From Patescibacteria group bacterium (GTDB lineage: Bacteria; Patescibacteriota; Minisyncoccia; Phycocordibacterales; UBA1550), in assembly GCA_038063615.1 (NCBI GenBank), contig JBBTUT010000003.1, positions 1,352-65,351 on the forward strand: a DNA stretch of 64,000 nt, read 5' to 3'. The notes beneath the pieces are model-generated. The model was not told the origin of the DNA and ran no database searches. It saw nothing but the letters and a program-made list of their open reading frames with translations. This document shows, one piece after another, positions 4,779 to 57,988 of the stretch (its first letter is position 1; each line of letters begins with the position of its first letter). A program made the translations under genes and the position numbers.

Positions 4779-4912
4779 TGAATGGGGAATGGGGAAGGGG
4801 GAATGAATATCGAATATCGAATGTTGAATATCGAATGTTGAATGTTGAATGTTGAATGTTGAATGTTGAATGTTGAATGTTGAATATCGAATGTTGAATG
4901 TTGAATGTTGAA
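4779..4912. repeat. Heptamer tandem repeat array (GAATGTT/GAATATC/GAATGGG units, about 17 copies)
   Basis: Direct reading: gaatggggaatgggg...gaatatcgaatgttgaatgttgaatgtt... Confidence 0.9.
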
Positions 4913-4915
4913 TTA

Positions 4916-4961
4916 GCAAAAACGCCTCCTATGTCCTATAGGACATAGGAGGCGTTTTTGC
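4916..4961. terminator. 46-nt perfect palindrome gcaaaaacgcctcctatgtcctataggacataggaggcgtttttgc
   Basis: Perfect inverted repeat with CTATAG centre, T-rich flank. Likely bidirectional intrinsic terminator. Confidence 0.7.
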
Positions 4962-5032
4962 TTCAAATATCAAATATCAAATAAACATAGATTTATTTCA
5001 GAATTACATTTGGCTATGTTATAATTTTATAC

Positions 5033-6127
5033 ATGGAACAAACACTGGGAGAACAACCAACAGCGGACACTGCTACTGAATTAACAAATTCAGCAACGGG
5101 TCAGACGATTGACAAAGAAGAAGAGAAAGCAGTAGAGAAGCTTCCTCGGACGGCTTTTCTCGCATCGCTCGGCATCGAAAATCGTTCGGCGAAAATCGTG
5201 CTCACAGGCGCGCTCGGAATCGTATTTTTTGCCACGCTCATTTCGTTTCTTTTGATGCCGCCACGCGACTTTCCCAAAGATAAAACGATTACGGTCAGGA
5301 GCGGTGTTTCTCTCGGGCAGGTGTCGCTCCTCCTAAAAGATGAGCACCTTATTCGCTCGCGCACTCTTTTTGAACTCTGCTCAAGGGCTGTCGGCGGGGA
5401 CAAACCGATTCTCGCGGGACAATACTTGTTCAAAGATTCCGCTTACGCATGCACCATCGCAATGCGTATCGCGCGCGGTATTTCGGGTATACCGAGCGTA
5501 CGCGTGACTATTCCCGAGGGAATGTCAAACAAGGAAGTTGCCGTGGTCATTGCGAAACTGCTTCCCGGCTTTGACTCCGCTTTTTTCCTTGAAAACGCGC
5601 GACAAAAAGAGGGGTATCTTTTCCCTGACACTTATTTGCTTTCCACGAGCGTGAATACCGAGAAGATCGTGTCGATAATGAGCGCAAATTTTGAGAAAAA
5701 GATAGAATCATGGATCCCGATCATCGAGTCCTCGGGACGCTCTCTCCGCGATACCATTATTATGGCGTCCATCCTCGAAAAAGAAGCAACTACCGACGAA
5801 GACAAAGAGCTCGTTTCAGGCATCCTTTGGAAGCGCATCAAGATCGGAATGCCACTTCAGGTTGACGCGACATTCATGTATCTTTTTAATAAAAAGTCGA
5901 GTGATATTACGCAAGCGGATCTCCAAATGAAATCAGTGTACAATACCTATCGCAACAAAGGTCTGCCGGGCGGCCCCATCGGCAATCCGGGTATCGCTGC
6001 CATCCGCGCGGCCATCCGCCCAAAAGATTCTCCATACCTCTACTATCTCTCCGACGACAAAGGCGTGATGCACTATGCGAAAACTTTTGCCGAGCATGTG
6101 GTGAATAAGGGGAAGTACTTAAGATAG
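5033..6127 (+). CDS. mltG: Endolytic murein transglycosylase MltG (YceG family)
   Basis: N-terminal TM segment. YceG-like motifs (EGYLFPDTY, GLPxGPIxNPG, YLYYL). TGTTATAAT extended -10 box 7 nt upstream of the ATG. Confidence 0.8.
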   Translation: MEQTLGEQPTADTATELTNSATGQTIDKEEEKAVEKLPRTAFLASLGIENRSAKIVLTGALGIVFFATLISFLLMPPRDFPKDKTITVRSGVSLGQVSLLLKDEHLIRSRTLFELCSRAVGGDKPILAGQYLFKDSAYACTIAMRIARGISGIPSVRVTIPEGMSNKEVAVVIAKLLPGFDSAFFLENARQKEGYLFPDTYLLSTSVNTEKIVSIMSANFEKKIESWIPIIESSGRSLRDTIIMASILEKEATTDEDKELVSGILWKRIKIGMPLQVDATFMYLFNKKSSDITQADLQMKSVYNTYRNKGLPGGPIGNPGIAAIRAAIRPKDSPYLYYLSDDKGVMHYAKTFAEHVVNKGKYLR

Positions 6128-6210
6128 AATATCGAATATGGAATGTTGAATATGGAATGGGTGTGTTAACCCGTATTTATTCAATATTCAATATTCGATA
6201 TTCGATATTC
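6127..6210. repeat. Heptamer repeat hairpin: gaatatcgaatatggaatgttgaatatggaatgg ... tcaatattcaatattcgatattcgatattc
   Basis: Forward and reverse-complement copies of the same GAATATC/GAATGTT units flank a 20-nt spacer between mltG and mnmA. Confidence 0.8.
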
Positions 6211-6215
6211 AGCAC

Positions 6216-7398: not shown

Positions 7399-7450
7399 CG
7401 CTTACTGGTATCTATTTCAAGCTATAGCTTGAAATAGATACCAGTAAGCG
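7399..7450. terminator. 52-nt perfect palindrome cgcttactggtatctatttcaagctatagcttgaaatagataccagtaagcg
   Basis: Perfect inverted repeat. Shares a 32-nt core (ATCTATTTCAAGCTATAGCTTGAAATAGAT) with the palindrome at 8980-9025. Confidence 0.7.
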
Positions 7451-8912: not shown

Positions 8913-8979
8913 TGGAGGAAAAGCGCCAGAGGGGGGGATGGGGAATAGTGAAGAGAACAGGGAAGATTTCATAATAAGT

Positions 8980-9025
8980 CCACTAACATCTATTTCAAGC
9001 TATAGCTTGAAATAGATGTTAGTGG
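8980..9025. terminator. 46-nt perfect palindrome ccactaacatctatttcaagctatagcttgaaatagatgttagtgg
   Basis: Perfect inverted repeat. Same 32-nt core as 7399-7450 but different outer stem. Confidence 0.7.
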
Positions 9026-9092
9026 ACTGTGATGGTTGACGGTATATAGTTGTGTTGGCGGAGGAAGGCAATTTGGTATAAGATAGGCGGAT

Positions 9093-31010: not shown

Positions 31011-31053
31011 TAAATTCCCCAATTTAACCCTATAGGGCGCGATTGGGGAATTT
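31011..31053. terminator. Nested hairpin aaattccccaat-ttaaccctatagggcgcg-attggggaatttt
   Basis: Inverted repeat with CCCTATAGGG core. Confidence 0.55.
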
Positions 31054-31086
31054 TGAAGTTTCTTATTTTTCTGTGTTGGTAATTTT

Positions 31087-31132
31087 CCAAATCCGCCAGC
31101 TTGGACCTATAGGTCCAAGCTGGCGGATTTGG
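31087..31132. terminator. 46-nt perfect palindrome ccaaatccgccagcttggacctataggtccaagctggcggatttgg
   Basis: Perfect inverted repeat with CTATAG centre. Confidence 0.7.
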
Positions 31133-31191
31133 AATTTCGATTTTGCTACGCTATATCGTGATACGAGAGACTGTGATATAATGCTCAAAAT

Positions 31192-33039: not shown

Positions 33040-33149
33040 ATGAATCCCGTTAGAAGTTTTTCTGTAATTTTTACAGAAGACAAATAAGCAGATAATTGGT
33101 AAGATAATATTGATAATTAATTTTTAATAACTAAACTTCTAACGGGATG
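33040..33149. mobile_element. MITE-like miniature element with 15-nt terminal inverted repeats TCCCGTTAGAAGTTT, flanked by ATGAA/ATGAAAA, sitting on the eno start codon
   Basis: atgaaTCCCGTTAGAAG ... CTTCTAACGGGatgaaaat. Same termini as the GIY-YIG element at 56684-57019. Confidence 0.7.
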
Positions 33150-34436
33150 AAAATAAAATCAATCAATGCGCGAGAGGTATTAGATAGCAGGGGGAATCCA
33201 ACTGTCGAGGCGGTGGTCATTTTGGAAAATGGTTCGATTGGTTCTGCGATGGTGCCGTCGGGGGCTTCTACGGGGAAATACGAGGCGGTGGAGCTTCGCG
33301 ATGGTGATACAGAGAGGTACGGCGGACTCGGTGTATTGAAAGCGGTGGGGAATATCAAAAATGAGATTGCGGGAGCTTTGGTCGGGATGGATGCCGCAGA
33401 CCAGAGGGCTATCGATACCGCGATGATCGCGCTCGACGGGACGGAAAACAAAACCAAGCTTGGCGCGAATGCAATCTTGGCGGTGTCTCTCGCTGTTGCA
33501 AAAGCAGAGTCGGTGGCGGAGGGTAAGCCGTTGTATGACTATCTCACAAAATTCAATCCAGATTTCAACGGGAAATTCATCATGCCGATACCGATGATGA
33601 ATATAATGAACGGAGGCAAGCATGCGAGCTGGGCGACGGACATTCAGGAATATATGATCGTGCCTGTTGGTGCCGGCTCGGTCACTGAAGCAGTGAGAGT
33701 ATGCGCGGAAGTGTATGCGTGCCTCAAAAAGACATTGAAAGAAAAAGAATATGCTACCAATGTCGGTGACGAGGGTGGTTTTGCTCCCGCAGTGAAAGAC
33801 AATAAAGAGCCGTTTGAACTGATGTCCGAAGCTGTTGCGAAAGCCGGCTATACGCTTGGCAAAGATGTTTTCTTCGGCATCGACGCCGCCGCTTCTGAAT
33901 TTTTCGAGAACGGTTTGTACCAGCTCCGCAAAGAGGGGAAGAGCGTAAATGGCGAAGAGCTGTCTTCTTTCTATCGCGGGCTTGCAGAAGAGTACCCGAT
34001 CATTTCGATGGAGGATATTTTTGCCGAAGATGACTGGGAATCCTTTGGTAAGTTTACCACTGAGAATGGCAGTCACACGCAGATTGTCGGTGACGATTTG
34101 TATGTCACTAATATGAAGAGATTGGAGCGTGGTGTCGCGGAGAAAACGACCAACTCTATTTTGATCAAATTGAATCAGATCGGAACATTGACCGAAACGA
34201 TTGACACAATCCTTTTGGCGGAAAAGAATAATTTTACTTCGATTATCTCTCATCGGAGTGGCGAAACGGAAGATACTTTTATTGCCGACCTCGTCGTCGC
34301 GATGGGTACCGGACAGATCAAAACGGGTGCACCGTGTCGCAGTGAGCGCACCGCAAAGTACAATCGCTTGATGGCGATAGAAGAGGAAGTAGGCGACAAA
34401 GCAGAGTATGCGAAGTTTCCGTTTCTAAAAAAATAA
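33147..34436 (+). CDS. eno: Enolase
   Basis: Full-length enolase (SGETED, catalytic Lys/Glu regions, IKLNQIGTLTETI). Confidence 0.95.
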   Translation: MKIKSINAREVLDSRGNPTVEAVVILENGSIGSAMVPSGASTGKYEAVELRDGDTERYGGLGVLKAVGNIKNEIAGALVGMDAADQRAIDTAMIALDGTENKTKLGANAILAVSLAVAKAESVAEGKPLYDYLTKFNPDFNGKFIMPIPMMNIMNGGKHASWATDIQEYMIVPVGAGSVTEAVRVCAEVYACLKKTLKEKEYATNVGDEGGFAPAVKDNKEPFELMSEAVAKAGYTLGKDVFFGIDAAASEFFENGLYQLRKEGKSVNGEELSSFYRGLAEEYPIISMEDIFAEDDWESFGKFTTENGSHTQIVGDDLYVTNMKRLERGVAEKTTNSILIKLNQIGTLTETIDTILLAEKNNFTSIISHRSGETEDTFIADLVVAMGTGQIKTGAPCRSERTAKYNRLMAIEEEVGDKAEYAKFPFLKK

Positions 34437-35023: not shown

Positions 35024-35798
35024 GGGAAAGGGGGTCAGGTACCCTTTCCCTTTACTTCTGGGGAAAGGGGGTCAGGTACCCTTTCCCTTTACTTCTGATA
35101 TACTAACCATATGCCTCGCATCACTCGTACCGACATCGGCAATCATTGCTATCATGTCATAAACCGTGCCAACGCGCGTATGCCGATTTTCTTCGCAGAA
35201 AAGGACTATGTTTTGTTTGAGCAAGTCCTAGAGGAAGCGCAAGAAAAGTTCTCTATGAGAATCCTCGCATACTGCCTCATGCCAAACCATTTTCACCTTG
35301 TGTTGTATCCAAAAAATGATGGTGACATGGGAAAATTCATGCAATGGCTCACGCTCACCCATACCCAGCGCTGGCATCAGGCGAACAATACGAAAGGAAG
35401 TGGGCATCTCTACCAAGGAAGGTACAAATCTTTTTTGATACAGGGCGACAACCATCTTCTCTCTGTTATTCGTTATGTCGAGCGAAACTCGCTTCGCGCA
35501 AAACTTGTTAGAAAAGCAGAGAACTGGGGTTTTTGTAGTTTAGCACGACGACTATCAATCAACACAAGAAAAAAGAAACTCTTGTCAGCATGGCCGATAC
35601 CGGAGCCAAGAGATTATCTCTCATTTGTTAGCACCCCGCAAACAAAAGAAGAGGAAGAAAGCATCAGAGGATCTGTCGTAAGAGGGAAGCCGTTTGGTGC
35701 AGATGCATGGGCTACAAAAATGATCGAGAAGTTTGGACTTGAAGCTACCGTGCGCTCGACAGGGAGACCCAAAAAGGGTACCTGACCCCCTTTTTCTC
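35024..35798 (+). mobile_element. IS200/IS605-like (RAYT-like) element: two tandem 38-nt left hairpins, a Y1 transposase gene, and an inverted right hairpin
   Basis: Left: gggaaagggggtcaggtaccctttccctttacttctg twice (35024-35098). Right: aaaaagggtacctgaccccctttttctc (35771-35798), inverted. Transposase stop TGA lies inside the right hairpin. Confidence 0.7.
35111..35785 (+). CDS. IS200-like / REP-associated tyrosine transposase (Y1 HUH)
   Basis: HUH motif in CLMPNHFHLVLYP. Transposase_17-like N-terminus (YHVINRANARMPIF). Confidence 0.7.
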   Translation: MPRITRTDIGNHCYHVINRANARMPIFFAEKDYVLFEQVLEEAQEKFSMRILAYCLMPNHFHLVLYPKNDGDMGKFMQWLTLTHTQRWHQANNTKGSGHLYQGRYKSFLIQGDNHLLSVIRYVERNSLRAKLVRKAENWGFCSLARRLSINTRKKKLLSAWPIPEPRDYLSFVSTPQTKEEEESIRGSVVRGKPFGADAWATKMIEKFGLEATVRSTGRPKKGT

Positions 35799-56573: not shown

Positions 56574-56683
56574 TTTTCTCCTCCTTTGTTTTTTGTACGA
56601 TTTAACATCCTCAGTGTATTCTACATACGAAATAATAAAATGTCAATATCTCCGCAATTTCATTTTTCTGCTATTATACAGAA

Positions 56684-57019
56684 ATGAATCCCGTTAGAGA
56701 TTCCCTGCCCACTTTCGCCAGAACACAAATTTGAGCTCAAGTGATGGCGGGCGGGCTCAGTTATGTATTATGTTTATGTTATTCAGAATGACAAAGGTAC
56801 ATGGTATACTGGCAGCACAGGAGACCTACGGAAACGCTTGAGGGAGCATAACACTGGCAGGTCAACTTGGACAAAAGGTAAGGGGGCGTGGGAGGTTATT
56901 TATTACGAAGCATGTCTTAATGAGCAAGATGCTCGGTCGAGAGAAATGTATTTAAAATCGGGAATGGGTAAGCGCTATCTAAAAACTAGACTCAAGCGTT
57001 TCCTATCTCTAACGGGATG
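56684..57019. mobile_element. GIY-YIG nuclease-encoding element with 12-nt terminal inverted repeats TCCCGTTAGAGA/TCTCTAACGGGA, flanked by ATGAA/ATGAAAA, on the trpS start codon
   Basis: atgaaTCCCGTTAGAGA ... TCTCTAACGGGatgaaaaag. The nuclease stop TGA overlaps the trpS ATG (gggATGA). Gene-less derivative at 33040-33149. Confidence 0.7.
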
Positions 57020-57020
57020 A
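56763..57020 (+). CDS. GIY-YIG nuclease domain protein (UPF0213-like, 85 aa)
   Basis: MYYVYVIQNDKGTWYTGSTGDLRKRLREHN matches the GIY...YIG motif. Confidence 0.75.
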   Translation: MYYVYVIQNDKGTWYTGSTGDLRKRLREHNTGRSTWTKGKGAWEVIYYEACLNEQDARSREMYLKSGMGKRYLKTRLKRFLSLTG

Positions 57021-57988
57021 AAAAGACGCTGCTTTCGGGGGTCAAGCCGACGGGTACGGCTCATATCGGCAACTATTTTGGCGCGATGCGCCAGTTTGTG
57101 GATTTTCAGGATGAGTACCGTCAGTTTATTTTTATTGCAAACTATCACGCGCTCACGAGCGTGTCTGATGGCGCGCTTTTGCGCAAGCTTTCGCTCGAGC
57201 TCGCGATGGACTATCTCGCTGTCGGCGTCGACCCGAAAAAAACGACGATGTTCCTCCAGTCTGATGTGCCCGAGGTGACCGAGCTCGCGTGGATATTCAA
57301 CACCATCACGACGGTGCCGTACCTCATGCGCGCGCATGCGTACAAAGACGCCGAGGCGAAAAACAAAGAGGTGAATGTCGGGCTTTTTGATTACCCTATT
57401 CTCATGGCGGCGGATATTTTGATATACGGCGCGGATGTCGTGCCCGTCGGTCTCGACCAGAAACAGCACATCGAGATCGCGCGCGATACGGCGCAAAAAT
57501 TCAATCGCACATTTGGCGAGACATTCACCGTGCCCGAACCACTCATTCTCGAAGAGGTGCAGACTATCATGGGCACCGACGGGCGCAAGATGAGCAAGAG
57601 CTATGGAAACGGGATTGGACTTTTTGCTTCAGATGAGGAGATCCGAAAAGCGGTGATGAGTATCCCGACTGATTCAAAAGGGGTAGAAGAACCGAAAGAC
57701 CCGGAGGTCTGCAAGGTATTTTATTTCCACAAATTGGTGAGTGGCAATGATTTGGAAAGTATCCGCGCACGCTACCTCGCGGGGGGCATTGGGTATAAAG
57801 AGTCGAAAGATATTTTGTTCGAGAATATGCGCGCATTCATCGCGCCGATGCGCGCGCGGAGAGATGAGATCGCGCGCGACCCGGAGGCGGTCATCCGCAT
57901 TCTCCGCGAGGGGGGAGAGGTCGCGCGGGCGGAAGCGCGAAAGAAAATGAATGAGGTGCGGGAGAAGGCGGGGCTGATATTAAAATAA
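57017..57988 (+). CDS. trpS: Tryptophanyl-tRNA synthetase
   Basis: Class I motifs TGTAHIGNYFG (HIGH-like) and KMSKS. 323 aa. Confidence 0.9.
   Translation: MKKTLLSGVKPTGTAHIGNYFGAMRQFVDFQDEYRQFIFIANYHALTSVSDGALLRKLSLELAMDYLAVGVDPKKTTMFLQSDVPEVTELAWIFNTITTVPYLMRAHAYKDAEAKNKEVNVGLFDYPILMAADILIYGADVVPVGLDQKQHIEIARDTAQKFNRTFGETFTVPEPLILEEVQTIMGTDGRKMSKSYGNGIGLFASDEEIRKAVMSIPTDSKGVEEPKDPEVCKVFYFHKLVSGNDLESIRARYLAGGIGYKESKDILFENMRAFIAPMRARRDEIARDPEAVIRILREGGEVARAEARKKMNEVREKAGLILK

Follow-up and report, generated by a model that had tools for sequence, protein, structure and literature searches.

Among the described systems that come closest in layout to the element reported here are the miniature inverted-repeat transposable elements (MITEs) that are co-transcribed as hairpins, namely Correia/CREE of Neisseria, ERIC and RUP, together with the Rickettsia palindromic elements. 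Our element occurs twice in a 64-kb stretch of DNA from a groundwater Patescibacteria group bacterium (64,000 nt of contig JBBTUT010000003.1, hereafter the window): a full-length copy with a gene for a small GIY-YIG nuclease sits on the start codon of trpS, and a short copy that lacks this gene sits on the start codon of eno. Both belong to a real, widespread, start-codon-occupying family of foldback elements, of which no description was found in full-text literature searches and which is apparently undescribed. In common with MITEs and the Rickettsia elements, the family has short non-coding copies, terminal inverted repeats and a short target duplication at many unrelated loci, is tolerated as the genes stay intact, and would form hairpins in the transcript. 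It differs from them in that the target is the start codon itself, with an upstream ATG copy that opens a frame through the element, in that its only coding partner is a GIY-YIG nuclease and not a DDE transposase, and in that the interiors are unrelated between copies while the same 10-bp ends are found across phyla.

A GIY-YIG domain in a selfish insert that preserves host expression, with a reading frame overlapping or abutting host genes, is also found in I-TevI and the Seg proteins of phage T4; here, however, the protein has 85-95 aa and no DNA-binding domain, the insert has terminal inverted repeats and a target duplication, and the hosts are many non-homologous genes. The intron models of Rfam gave no match in the window and three element-rich loci, which further sets the element apart from intron-encoded homing endonucleases. 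The closest relatives of the nuclease in sequence (1zg2) and in fold (1zg2, 6seh/6sei, 1ywl) are the UPF0213 (YhbQ-YazA) proteins and Slx1, a nuclease of branched and hairpin DNA, and its size is that of bacterial UPF0213 proteins, but here the gene is embedded in inverted repeats, which encode both ends of the protein. The IS200/IS605 and REP/RAYT (REPIN) systems likewise have hairpin ends, gene-less palindromes that far outnumber the enzyme gene, a repeat-flanked enzyme gene and a short specific target, yet theirs is a HUH Y1 enzyme that leaves no target duplication, whereas a GIY-YIG enzyme and a covarying 5-bp duplication are seen here. Finally, the gene 60 bypass element of T4 with its MobA endonuclease, and the mobile GIY-YIG open reading frames (ORFs) fused to gene ends in fungal mitochondria, are selfish nuclease cassettes in a translated region with a built-in rescue of host translation; each of these occupies one specific gene, internally or at its 3' end, and depends on hopping or on duplication of a C-terminus, while our element lies on many start codons and is proposed to rely on termination-reinitiation.

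The element acts like a MITE or inverted-repeat transposon and like a free-standing homing endonuclease at once, and it falls outside the definition of each class, as it lacks a transposase of known class and its short copies are not similar to each other, and as it has neither an intron nor a single cognate site. We consider it probable that the family consists of very small foldback (palindromic) DNA transposons that insert on start codons, borrow the mostly leaderless initiation signals found there and hand translation back to the host gene by termination-reinitiation.

The two copies in the window

Both copies read ATGAA-[TCCCGTTAGA...TCTAACGGG]-ATGAA, with terminal inverted repeats that pair without mismatch over 14 bp in the trpS copy (perfect arms 56688-56701 and 57005-57018) and over 16 bp in the eno copy (33044-33059 and 33133-33148). 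Sequence and coordinates thus bear out the preliminary description of this DNA, which had presented the two as inverted-repeat inserts between ATGAA copies. Written out, the trpS copy (56684-57021) is ATGAA-TCCCGTTAGAGAT...ATCTCTAACGGG-ATGAAAAAG and the eno copy (33040-33151) is ATGAA-TCCCGTTAGAAGTTT...AAACTTCTAACGGG-ATGAAAATA. The exact 10-mer TCCCGTTAGA occurs four times in the window, as these two inverted pairs and nowhere else; with one mismatch tolerated, four occurrences are found against 2.98 expected, which alone is not significant, and chance is excluded because of the paired layout, the flanks and some 240 further copies of the same architecture. Beyond a shared 11-mer the repeats of the two copies differ, the changes being compensated on both arms (GAT/ATC against AGTTT/AAACT). 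The host ATG had been described as formed at the element junction, which is so, with the correction that in both copies its A doubles as the final base of the right repeat; the structure can be written as ATGAA-[TCCCG...CGGG]-ATGAA or as a fully symmetric element with a 4-bp duplication TGAA.

Features of the trpS copy:
56672..56677, + strand: -10-like TATTAT, 6 nt 5' of the upstream ATG, read from the sequence; presumed original leaderless trpS promoter, now driving the element
56684..56688, + strand: target duplicate ATGAA on the left, trpS start codon before the insertion
56684..56734, + strand: 16-codon ORF from the upstream ATG (by translation), with its TGA stop within the strain-specific insert
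56689..56701, + strand: left terminal inverted repeat, TCCCGTTAGA (56689-56698) followed by the variable paired GAT
56702..56753, + strand: extra hairpin-forming insert of 52 nt
56763..57020, + strand: GIY-YIG nuclease ORF, 85 aa (Pfam PF01541, E=1e-14)
56830..56842, + strand: 5' arm GGAAACGCTTGAG of the inner helix P2, within the nuclease ORF (predicted fold)
56991..57003, + strand: 3' arm CTCAAGCGTTTCC of P2, 1 nt 5' of the right repeat (predicted fold)
57005..57017, + strand: right terminal inverted repeat, ATC followed by TCTAACGGGA (57008-57017)
57017..57021, + strand: target duplicate ATGAA on the right, now serving as the trpS start codon
57017..57988, + strand: host gene trpS, 323 aa, N-terminus intact (Pfam PF00579, E=7e-59)

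Features of the eno copy:
33040..33044, + strand: target duplicate ATGAA on the left, eno start codon before the insertion
33040..33087, + strand: 15-codon ORF MNPVRSFSVIFTEDK from the upstream ATG
33045..33059, + strand: left inverted repeat, TCCCGTTAGA (33045-33054) followed by AGTTT
33060..33078, + strand: small inner hairpin TTCTGTAA-TTT-TTACAGAA (predicted fold)
33110..33137, + strand: promoter-like TTGATA-16-TAAACT, ending 9 nt 5' of the eno ATG (consensus scan only)
33133..33147, + strand: right inverted repeat, AAACT followed by TCTAACGGGA (33138-33147)
33147..33151, + strand: target duplicate ATGAA on the right, now serving as the eno start codon (ATG 33147-33149)
33147..34436, + strand: host gene eno, 429 aa (Pfam Enolase_N and Enolase_C)

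The end of the nuclease ORF (SLTG and the stop) is encoded by the right inverted repeat, and its TGA stop (57018-57020) overlaps the trpS ATG (57017-57019) just as had been reported. The 52-nt insert at 56702-56753 is found in no other full-length copy, and its BLAST matches are contigs of the same strain only; as it puts a stop into the frame of the upstream ATG, the nuclease of this copy must start at its own internal ATG, which has no obvious ribosome-binding site. TrpS itself is 73% identical to its orthologue in the syntenic relative L001 and can be aligned with it from residue 1. For the eno copy the preliminary description was right that the inverted repeats are kept and wrong that no ORF is left, since the 15-codon ORF at 33040-33087 runs from the upstream ATG and stops 60 nt short of the eno ATG, placing this copy in an 'early stop' class discussed below. 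The small inner hairpin of this copy comes from a fold predicted for a whole stretch of 136 nt, with z = -4.4 for the + strand and z = -6.4 for the - strand.

Insertion sites, folded ends and the nuclease

When one genome of each species was scanned for the right end TCTAACGGGATGAA alone, with the left flank free, this yielded at least 110 paired elements among the matches listed (120 stretches), and a scan of metagenomes with both cores fixed and the flanks free yielded at least 132, also among the matches listed. The search for repeat pairs beyond the window, which the preliminary description had suggested, thus adds about 240 copies of the same architecture among the matches listed in both scans together. 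In the genome scan the left flank is ATGA in the large majority of copies, even though it was absent from the search pattern. The source lineages are Paceibacteria groups, Saccharibacteria, Kerfeld-, Levyi-, Nomura-, Kaiser- and Wolfebacteria among other Patescibacteria, with a few copies from metagenome-assembled genomes labelled Omnitrophota, Planctomycetota and other phyla, some of which labels may be unreliable. Patterns with both cores, in the short and the full-length size classes, had no match in viral_contigs, and Rfam 15 at gathering score had none in the window and three element-rich loci. Gene-less derivatives of the kind that had been proposed do exist and are about 25 times commoner than the nuclease-bearing form: the full form has about 279 bp and the gene-less copies 30-190 bp, with sizes that cluster at 60-89, 100-119 and 120-129 nt and a preferred length near 120 nt, and the nuclease is present in only about 4% of copies. 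Both scans demanded exact cores and left degenerate copies uncounted; such degenerate or variant copies exist (L094 4045-4170, L119 1125-1425, L144 7375-7623, and one-mismatch left cores TCCCGTTAAAG and TCCGGTTAGA), so that the scans undercount the family, and among the three loci is one nuclease gene that has no right end and is followed directly by another element. A larger autonomous element was looked for and rejected, as the sole apparent 1-kb pair (L094) resolves into two separate elements around an ordinary gene.

The flanks of the metagenome copies carry the signature of insertion. In 77 of 132 copies the 5 nt left of TCCCG are identical to the 5 nt that start from the last A of CGGGA, and most of the others differ by one base. 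The identical 5-mers are ATGAA (50), ATGGA (12), ATGAG (8), ATGCG (5) and ATGAT (2), and since positions 4 and 5 covary between the two sides, the repeat is a true target duplication and not sequence carried by the element. Its length of 4, 5 or occasionally 6 bp is ambiguous, because the ATG is constant and the element end overlaps it. Among 70 unoccupied called gene starts at related loci, ATGAA makes up 23% and ATGCA, ATGGC and ATGAC together 29%, so that the element has a preference for ATG followed by A, G or C (A>G>C) and then a purine. Targeting of ATGAAA, as previously proposed, holds with regard to the start codon and not with regard to that exact sequence: the target is better given as ATG + (A>G>C) + (A>G), and about 10% of copies lie elsewhere, some of them at duplicated A/T-rich pentamers such as TTTTA. 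One class of copies has a non-ATG left flank (ACTTG|TCCCG...). Of the 132 metagenome copies, 111 have a junction ATG from which an ORF of 60 codons or more runs on, and this is never so in the opposite orientation.

Comparison of relatives, likewise suggested in the preliminary description, revealed empty sites at both host genes, the nearest relatives having ATGCAAAAG, ATGAAAATC and ATGAAGATT at these starts. At trpS, the syntenic relative L001 (gene order HisKA-trpS-aspS) reads taatatgaacaaATGCAAAAGACG where the window reads tattatacagaaATGAA[element]ATGAAAAAGACG. The two closest enolases (89% and 87% identical) begin element-free at ...taaatttacacaATGAAAATCAAATC and ...gatacaataaaaatATGAAGATTAAATC, the empty eno sites being ATGAAAATCAAATCAATC in L252 and ATGAAGATTAAATCAATC in L253, and the second of these relatives shares the upstream ABC-transporter gene of the window. 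An automated search of the fetched loci for empty sites added two more orthologous gene starts that lack the element, both of them distant cases. In addition, tandem copies with one shared ATGAA are present in L018, L025 and L033. The covarying flanks, the ORFs opened by the junction ATG, the empty trpS and eno sites, the tandem copies and the presence of paralogues in one genome (below) together sustain the earlier view of a selfish insertion at start codons.

Each copy has an invariant 10-bp terminal inverted repeat (TCCCGTTAGA and TCTAACGGGA), and the three positions beyond this core are paired in 93-97% of copies in spite of about 20 different triplets; the 3-bp extension is fully complementary in 168 of 202 copies, compared with 21.5 expected for a random pairing of ends. 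A second helix (for example GGTCGC/GCGACC) is present in many copies, its 3' arm stopping 1-2 nt short of the right repeat, and a perfect 6-nt complement is seen in 39 of 164 copies against 2.8% in controls. In full-length copies this helix, P2, lies within the ORF and is marked by compensatory variants (GGAAACGCTTTAATC/GATTAAAGCGTTTCC and GGAAACGCCTTAAAC/GTTTAAGGCGTTTCC), and in the trpS copy of the window it is predicted by folding. The interior is asymmetric, and the orientation relative to the host gene is biased by 77 to 5. In some short copies the P2 arms and the final codons of the nuclease gene can still be recognised, and overall the ends and their pairing stay intact while the interiors are at background similarity even within one locus. 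A reading of GTTAGA/TCTAAC as integron attC-like boxes was discarded, their order being reversed relative to attC on both strands.

The nuclease of the window scores 55 bits against Pfam PF01541 (cut-off 22.6, E=1e-14), has UPF0213 BH0048 (1zg2) as its best sequence match in the PDB (E=3.4e-8) and has homologues in more than 4200 protein clusters, whose sources are named as Patescibacteria lineages. Its structure model (predicted local distance difference test, pLDDT, 89) has the strand and helix order E-E-H-E-H-H, and the top Foldseek matches are 1zg2, 6seh, 6sei and 1ywl. The solved proteins nearest to it in sequence and fold are UPF0213 BH0048 and EF2693 and the branched-DNA nuclease Slx1. 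The catalytic residues are conserved in a sample of 20 sequences, where Y15-T16-G17, R23, R25, H29, N30 and E61 are invariant and Y3 and Y5 at least 90% conserved; the C-terminus RLKRFLSLTG is also invariant in 20 family members, a stretch that is constrained by the two helices as well. The protein can thus be assigned from its sequence and predicted fold to the UPF0213/Slx1 branch of the GIY-YIG superfamily as a putative nuclease. NCBIfam TIGR01453, the model of group I intron endonucleases, gives a weak sub-threshold match (20.6 bits against a cut-off of 56).

The tie between this nuclease and the ends is strict. The gene is found in front of murG, a histidine kinase gene, argS and a gene for 67 aa, always with the same ends and the 4-nt ATGA overlap. 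All homologues of 45-100% identity with both ends in the fetched DNA lie inside element ends and adjoin a host ATG, the exceptions being L144, which has no right repeat, and L032, which is cut at the edge of the locus; homologues of at most 42% identity in the fetched loci do not lie between such ends. The GIY-YIG gene is also the only ORF found between these ends, with no DDE, HUH or Ser/Tyr recombinase as partner. Two full-length copies in one genome, at murG and the kinase gene, are 93% identical in DNA compared with 85-87% between genomes, and two organisms with TrpS proteins of 73% identity have nucleases that are 87% identical. As a separate observation, a more distant small GIY-YIG gene (43% identity) at L029 483-707 lacks these ends and is directly followed by a tRNA gene, another kind of setting for members of the wider UPF0213-like family.

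Reading frames and proposed mechanism

Where full-length copies are compact, the nuclease frame already begins at the upstream ATG (MNPVRDxxVM...), which explains why the protein exists in databases in versions of 94-95 aa and of 85-86 aa, and the stop is the TGA that overlaps the host ATG. The right end TCTAACGGGATGA offers a TAA in one frame, 7 nt before the host ATG, the overlapping TGA in a second and in-frame entry into the host gene in the third. Of 140 short copies, 73 (52%) have no stop between the upstream ATG and the right end in the frame of that ATG; with shuffled interiors the share is 12%, and in antisense frames it is 10-16%. The open frame can be any of the three, and the peptides show no conservation save for the parts encoded by the paired ends; an open frame without a conserved peptide points to selection for the passage of ribosomes and not for the peptide. 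That regeneration of the ATG preserves host translation, as had been suggested, is therefore half the story, the other half being that the upstream frame is also kept open through the element.

The signals in front of the upstream ATG seem to be those of leaderless genes. TANNNT lies 5-9 nt before it in 69 of 151 elements (46%), compared with 9% of random positions and 36% of other called genes, and Shine-Dalgarno (SD)-like motifs are present in 8%, equal to the random level; SD-led initiation at the upstream ATG was rejected on that account. Taking the called gene starts of L001-L003 and L244 together with the 151 element-bearing starts, SD-like motifs occur at about 10%, again the random level, and TANNNT at 36-46%, which suggests that leaderless mRNAs dominate in these Patescibacteria. 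An internal promoter as a general rescue of the host gene was also considered and set aside, as TANNNT at leaderless distance precedes the junction ATG in only 11 of 191 short copies. The motif is not enriched there in the early-stop class, and the promoter match in the eno copy is an isolated consensus match.

Here we propose the following course of events, in which the anatomy and the insertion are taken from the sequences themselves (inverted ends, covarying duplication, start-codon occupancy, gain and loss between relatives, the strict tie to one nuclease subfamily and the frame kept open), the expression in part by deduction and the movement wholly so. The element inserts into ATG(A/G/C)(A/G) with duplication of 4-5 bp (ATGNN), and the surviving copies are those on start codons, where the duplication leaves the host gene whole. 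The upstream ATG would retain the initiation signals of the host, mostly a -10 box 5-9 nt upstream as for a leaderless mRNA, and would open the frame of the element itself, either MNPVRD... into the nuclease or the stop-free frame of the short copies. At the right end translation would meet the TAA 7 nt before the host ATG or the TGA overlapping it, or would run in frame into the host protein, and ribosomes would unwind the terminal hairpin and restart on the host gene by termination-reinitiation. The nuclease would recognise the conserved folded ends and cut the target with a stagger. The ends might then be joined by ligating 5-nt overhangs that match and are not palindromic, a route by which the orientation would be fixed as well.

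More tentatively, and as a possibility that we would not yet favour, the family may represent a new class of prokaryotic transposons whose sole enzyme is a minimal Slx1/UPF0213-like GIY-YIG nuclease that recognises its own hairpin or cruciform ends. Such a transposon would integrate in fixed orientation at the first five bases of genes, where, in largely leaderless hosts, transcription also starts and the promoter bubble has its edge, and would be a parasite of translation initiation that takes the host start codon and hands the ribosomes back by termination-reinitiation, widespread in Patescibacteria and shared with Omnitrophota and Planctomycetota. If the interpretation of the family is right, GIY-YIG nucleases join the enzymes known to drive transposon-like spread in bacteria, and the seat on a start codon, with host translation restored by design, would be a new 'safe haven' strategy. 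In that case some members of UPF0213, a large family that is still uncharacterised, would also gain a candidate function, and the element would provide a natural compact cassette (about 120-280 bp) with which to study how leaderless mRNAs are initiated, how ribosomes reinitiate and how hairpins are unwound in Patescibacteria, which are hardly tractable. For annotation the consequence is that small ORFs and host starts are variously fused, truncated or missed by gene callers, as illustrated by the 85/86 and 94/95 aa versions of the nuclease.

Several observations weigh against the transposon model or parts of it. The upstream frame has an early stop in 48% of the short copies that have an upstream ATG, the eno copy included, and the upstream ATG is lost in 27% of short copies, so that coupling cannot be the sole route by which host genes are translated. 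At strain level no polymorphism was seen, since all contigs with the exact Eno or TrpS proteins of the window have identical spacing, and the nuclease of one widely sampled organism (P0021) has one context in every sample with no presence/absence polymorphism, from which it follows that activity is low or old. The occupancy of start codons could reflect purifying selection on insertions into a short A/T-rich target and not recognition of start codons, and may be largely due to such selection because the genomes are dense and nearly every other ATGRR lies inside a gene. With regard to the enzyme, the nuclease is a catalytic core of 85-95 aa that has no separate DNA-binding domain, GIY-YIG nucleases hydrolyse DNA and are not known to join it, and we know of no transposon that has a GIY-YIG nuclease as its only enzyme. 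Mismatches in the stem are 15 G-U against 19 A-C, and this absence of a G-U excess lends no support to a structure confined to the sense RNA. The interiors of short copies have a median identity of 0.59 within a locus and 0.53 between loci, that is, they are mutually unrelated, unlike a MITE family in recent amplification. Lastly, the conservation of the ends is partly an ascertainment effect of scans that demanded exact cores.

Alternative explanations and other repeats in the window

Each alternative is contradicted by at least one direct observation. The one that survives best, although we regard it as rather unlikely, is that the hairpins are moved in trans by another enzyme, either the Y1 HUH transposase encoded at 35111-35785 or an unseen DDE enzyme, with the GIY-YIG gene as a passenger or a separate selfish colonist. 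The Y1_Tnp (PF01797) gene is only about 0.7 kb 3' of eno and about 2 kb from the short element at its start, hairpins in single-stranded DNA are substrates of HUH enzymes, copies with the nuclease are vastly outnumbered by those that have no gene, and DNA joining is not known for GIY-YIG enzymes, all of which would fit. However, the Y1 gene is not flanked by element ends, the four core matches of the window being those of the two elements, and IS200/IS605 and REP/RAYT systems produce no target duplication, as opposed to the covarying 5-bp duplication seen here. Moreover, the GIY-YIG gene is accompanied by the ends in different phyla and at protein identities as low as 45%, both ends form part of the nuclease reading frame, and a larger element that has another ORF between these ends was not seen, the apparent 1-kb pair being two elements.

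It is unlikely that the element is mainly a cis-regulatory leader of the host, in which a hairpin that hides the start codon is combined with an upstream ORF and a mobile origin is ancient and no longer relevant. Such a leader would account for the conservation of ends, pairing and open upstream frame while the interiors diverged to background, for the uniformity among strains and for the position of the start codon at the foot of a 13-16 bp helix; copies of the ACTTG|TCCCG... type could even extend the pairing over the AUG with G-U pairs. Against it stand the unrelated nature of the host genes (aminoacyl-tRNA synthetases, enolase, cell-wall genes, kinases), the nearest relatives that have the same genes and no element, and the flanking duplications and tandem copies, which are signatures of insertion. 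There is also no G-U excess in the stem and no Rfam match, and the nuclease gene would be left unexplained. As a later co-option, regulation of this kind could coexist with transposition.

A classical free-standing homing endonuclease gene, spreading solely among alleles of one locus by double-strand-break repair and leaving the short copies as remnants decayed in place, is very unlikely to be the explanation. GIY-YIG is a classic homing-endonuclease fold, TIGR01453 gives the sub-threshold match mentioned above (20.6 bits against 56), pieces of the nuclease gene (P2 arms, last codons) persist in some short copies, and an orientation bias would be inherited from a full-length ancestor. Homing, the term used in the preliminary description, is in its strict sense of double-strand-break repair from a filled allele nevertheless not what the flanks indicate, as they belong to many unrelated genes with only 5 nt in common, and the 5-mers are duplicated, which is not a product of homing. 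In addition, the 85-aa protein lacks the long DNA-binding region of I-TevI-type enzymes, the short copies fall into size modes and not into a smear of deletion sizes, and one genome has two paralogues at different genes.

Most improbable is a removal or skipping of the insert at the level of RNA or translation (an intron, excision by RNase III, or ribosome hopping or shunting) with the host protein read from the upstream ATG, for which the coupling of a bypassed hairpin with a homing endonuclease cassette in phage T4 and the helix foot that brings both ATGs together may be cited, but against which there is no ribozyme or intron match, copies are as small as about 30 nt, the distance from ATG to ATG falls in all three frames (with ATG| and ATGA| left flanks that would give different frames), and the downstream ATG is itself a complete, conserved start. 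GIY-YIG-encoding insertions that match neither group I nor group II introns are described for rRNA genes of the candidate phyla radiation (CPR) (PMC11270868), which could likewise be counted for such skipping, and these insertions may be the same element.

Apart from the element, the window holds a number of other repeats. Perfect palindromes of 48-52 nt with no loop are located at 4915-4962, 7399-7450, 8977-9028 and 31085-31134, and an imperfect one at 31012-31053; all are centred on YCTATAGR and lie in intergenic spacers after or before genes, and two of them have a common 30-nt centre with differing outer arms that are still perfectly complementary. They look like a second, unrelated family of palindromic repeats or like bidirectional terminators. 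The Y1 (HUH) transposase gene at 35111-35785 (+ strand, 224 aa, PF01797) is of the IS200/RAYT type and might be the partner of these CTATAG palindromes. ARAGORN found no tRNA over the window. Short intergenic tandem runs of GAATATCGAATATGGAATGTTGAATA..., gaatgttgaatgttgaatgttgaatt and tcaaatatcaaatatcaaata are present at 6115-6215 and at 4885-4914 and 4963-4990, some of which flank the palindrome at 4915 in inverted orientation.

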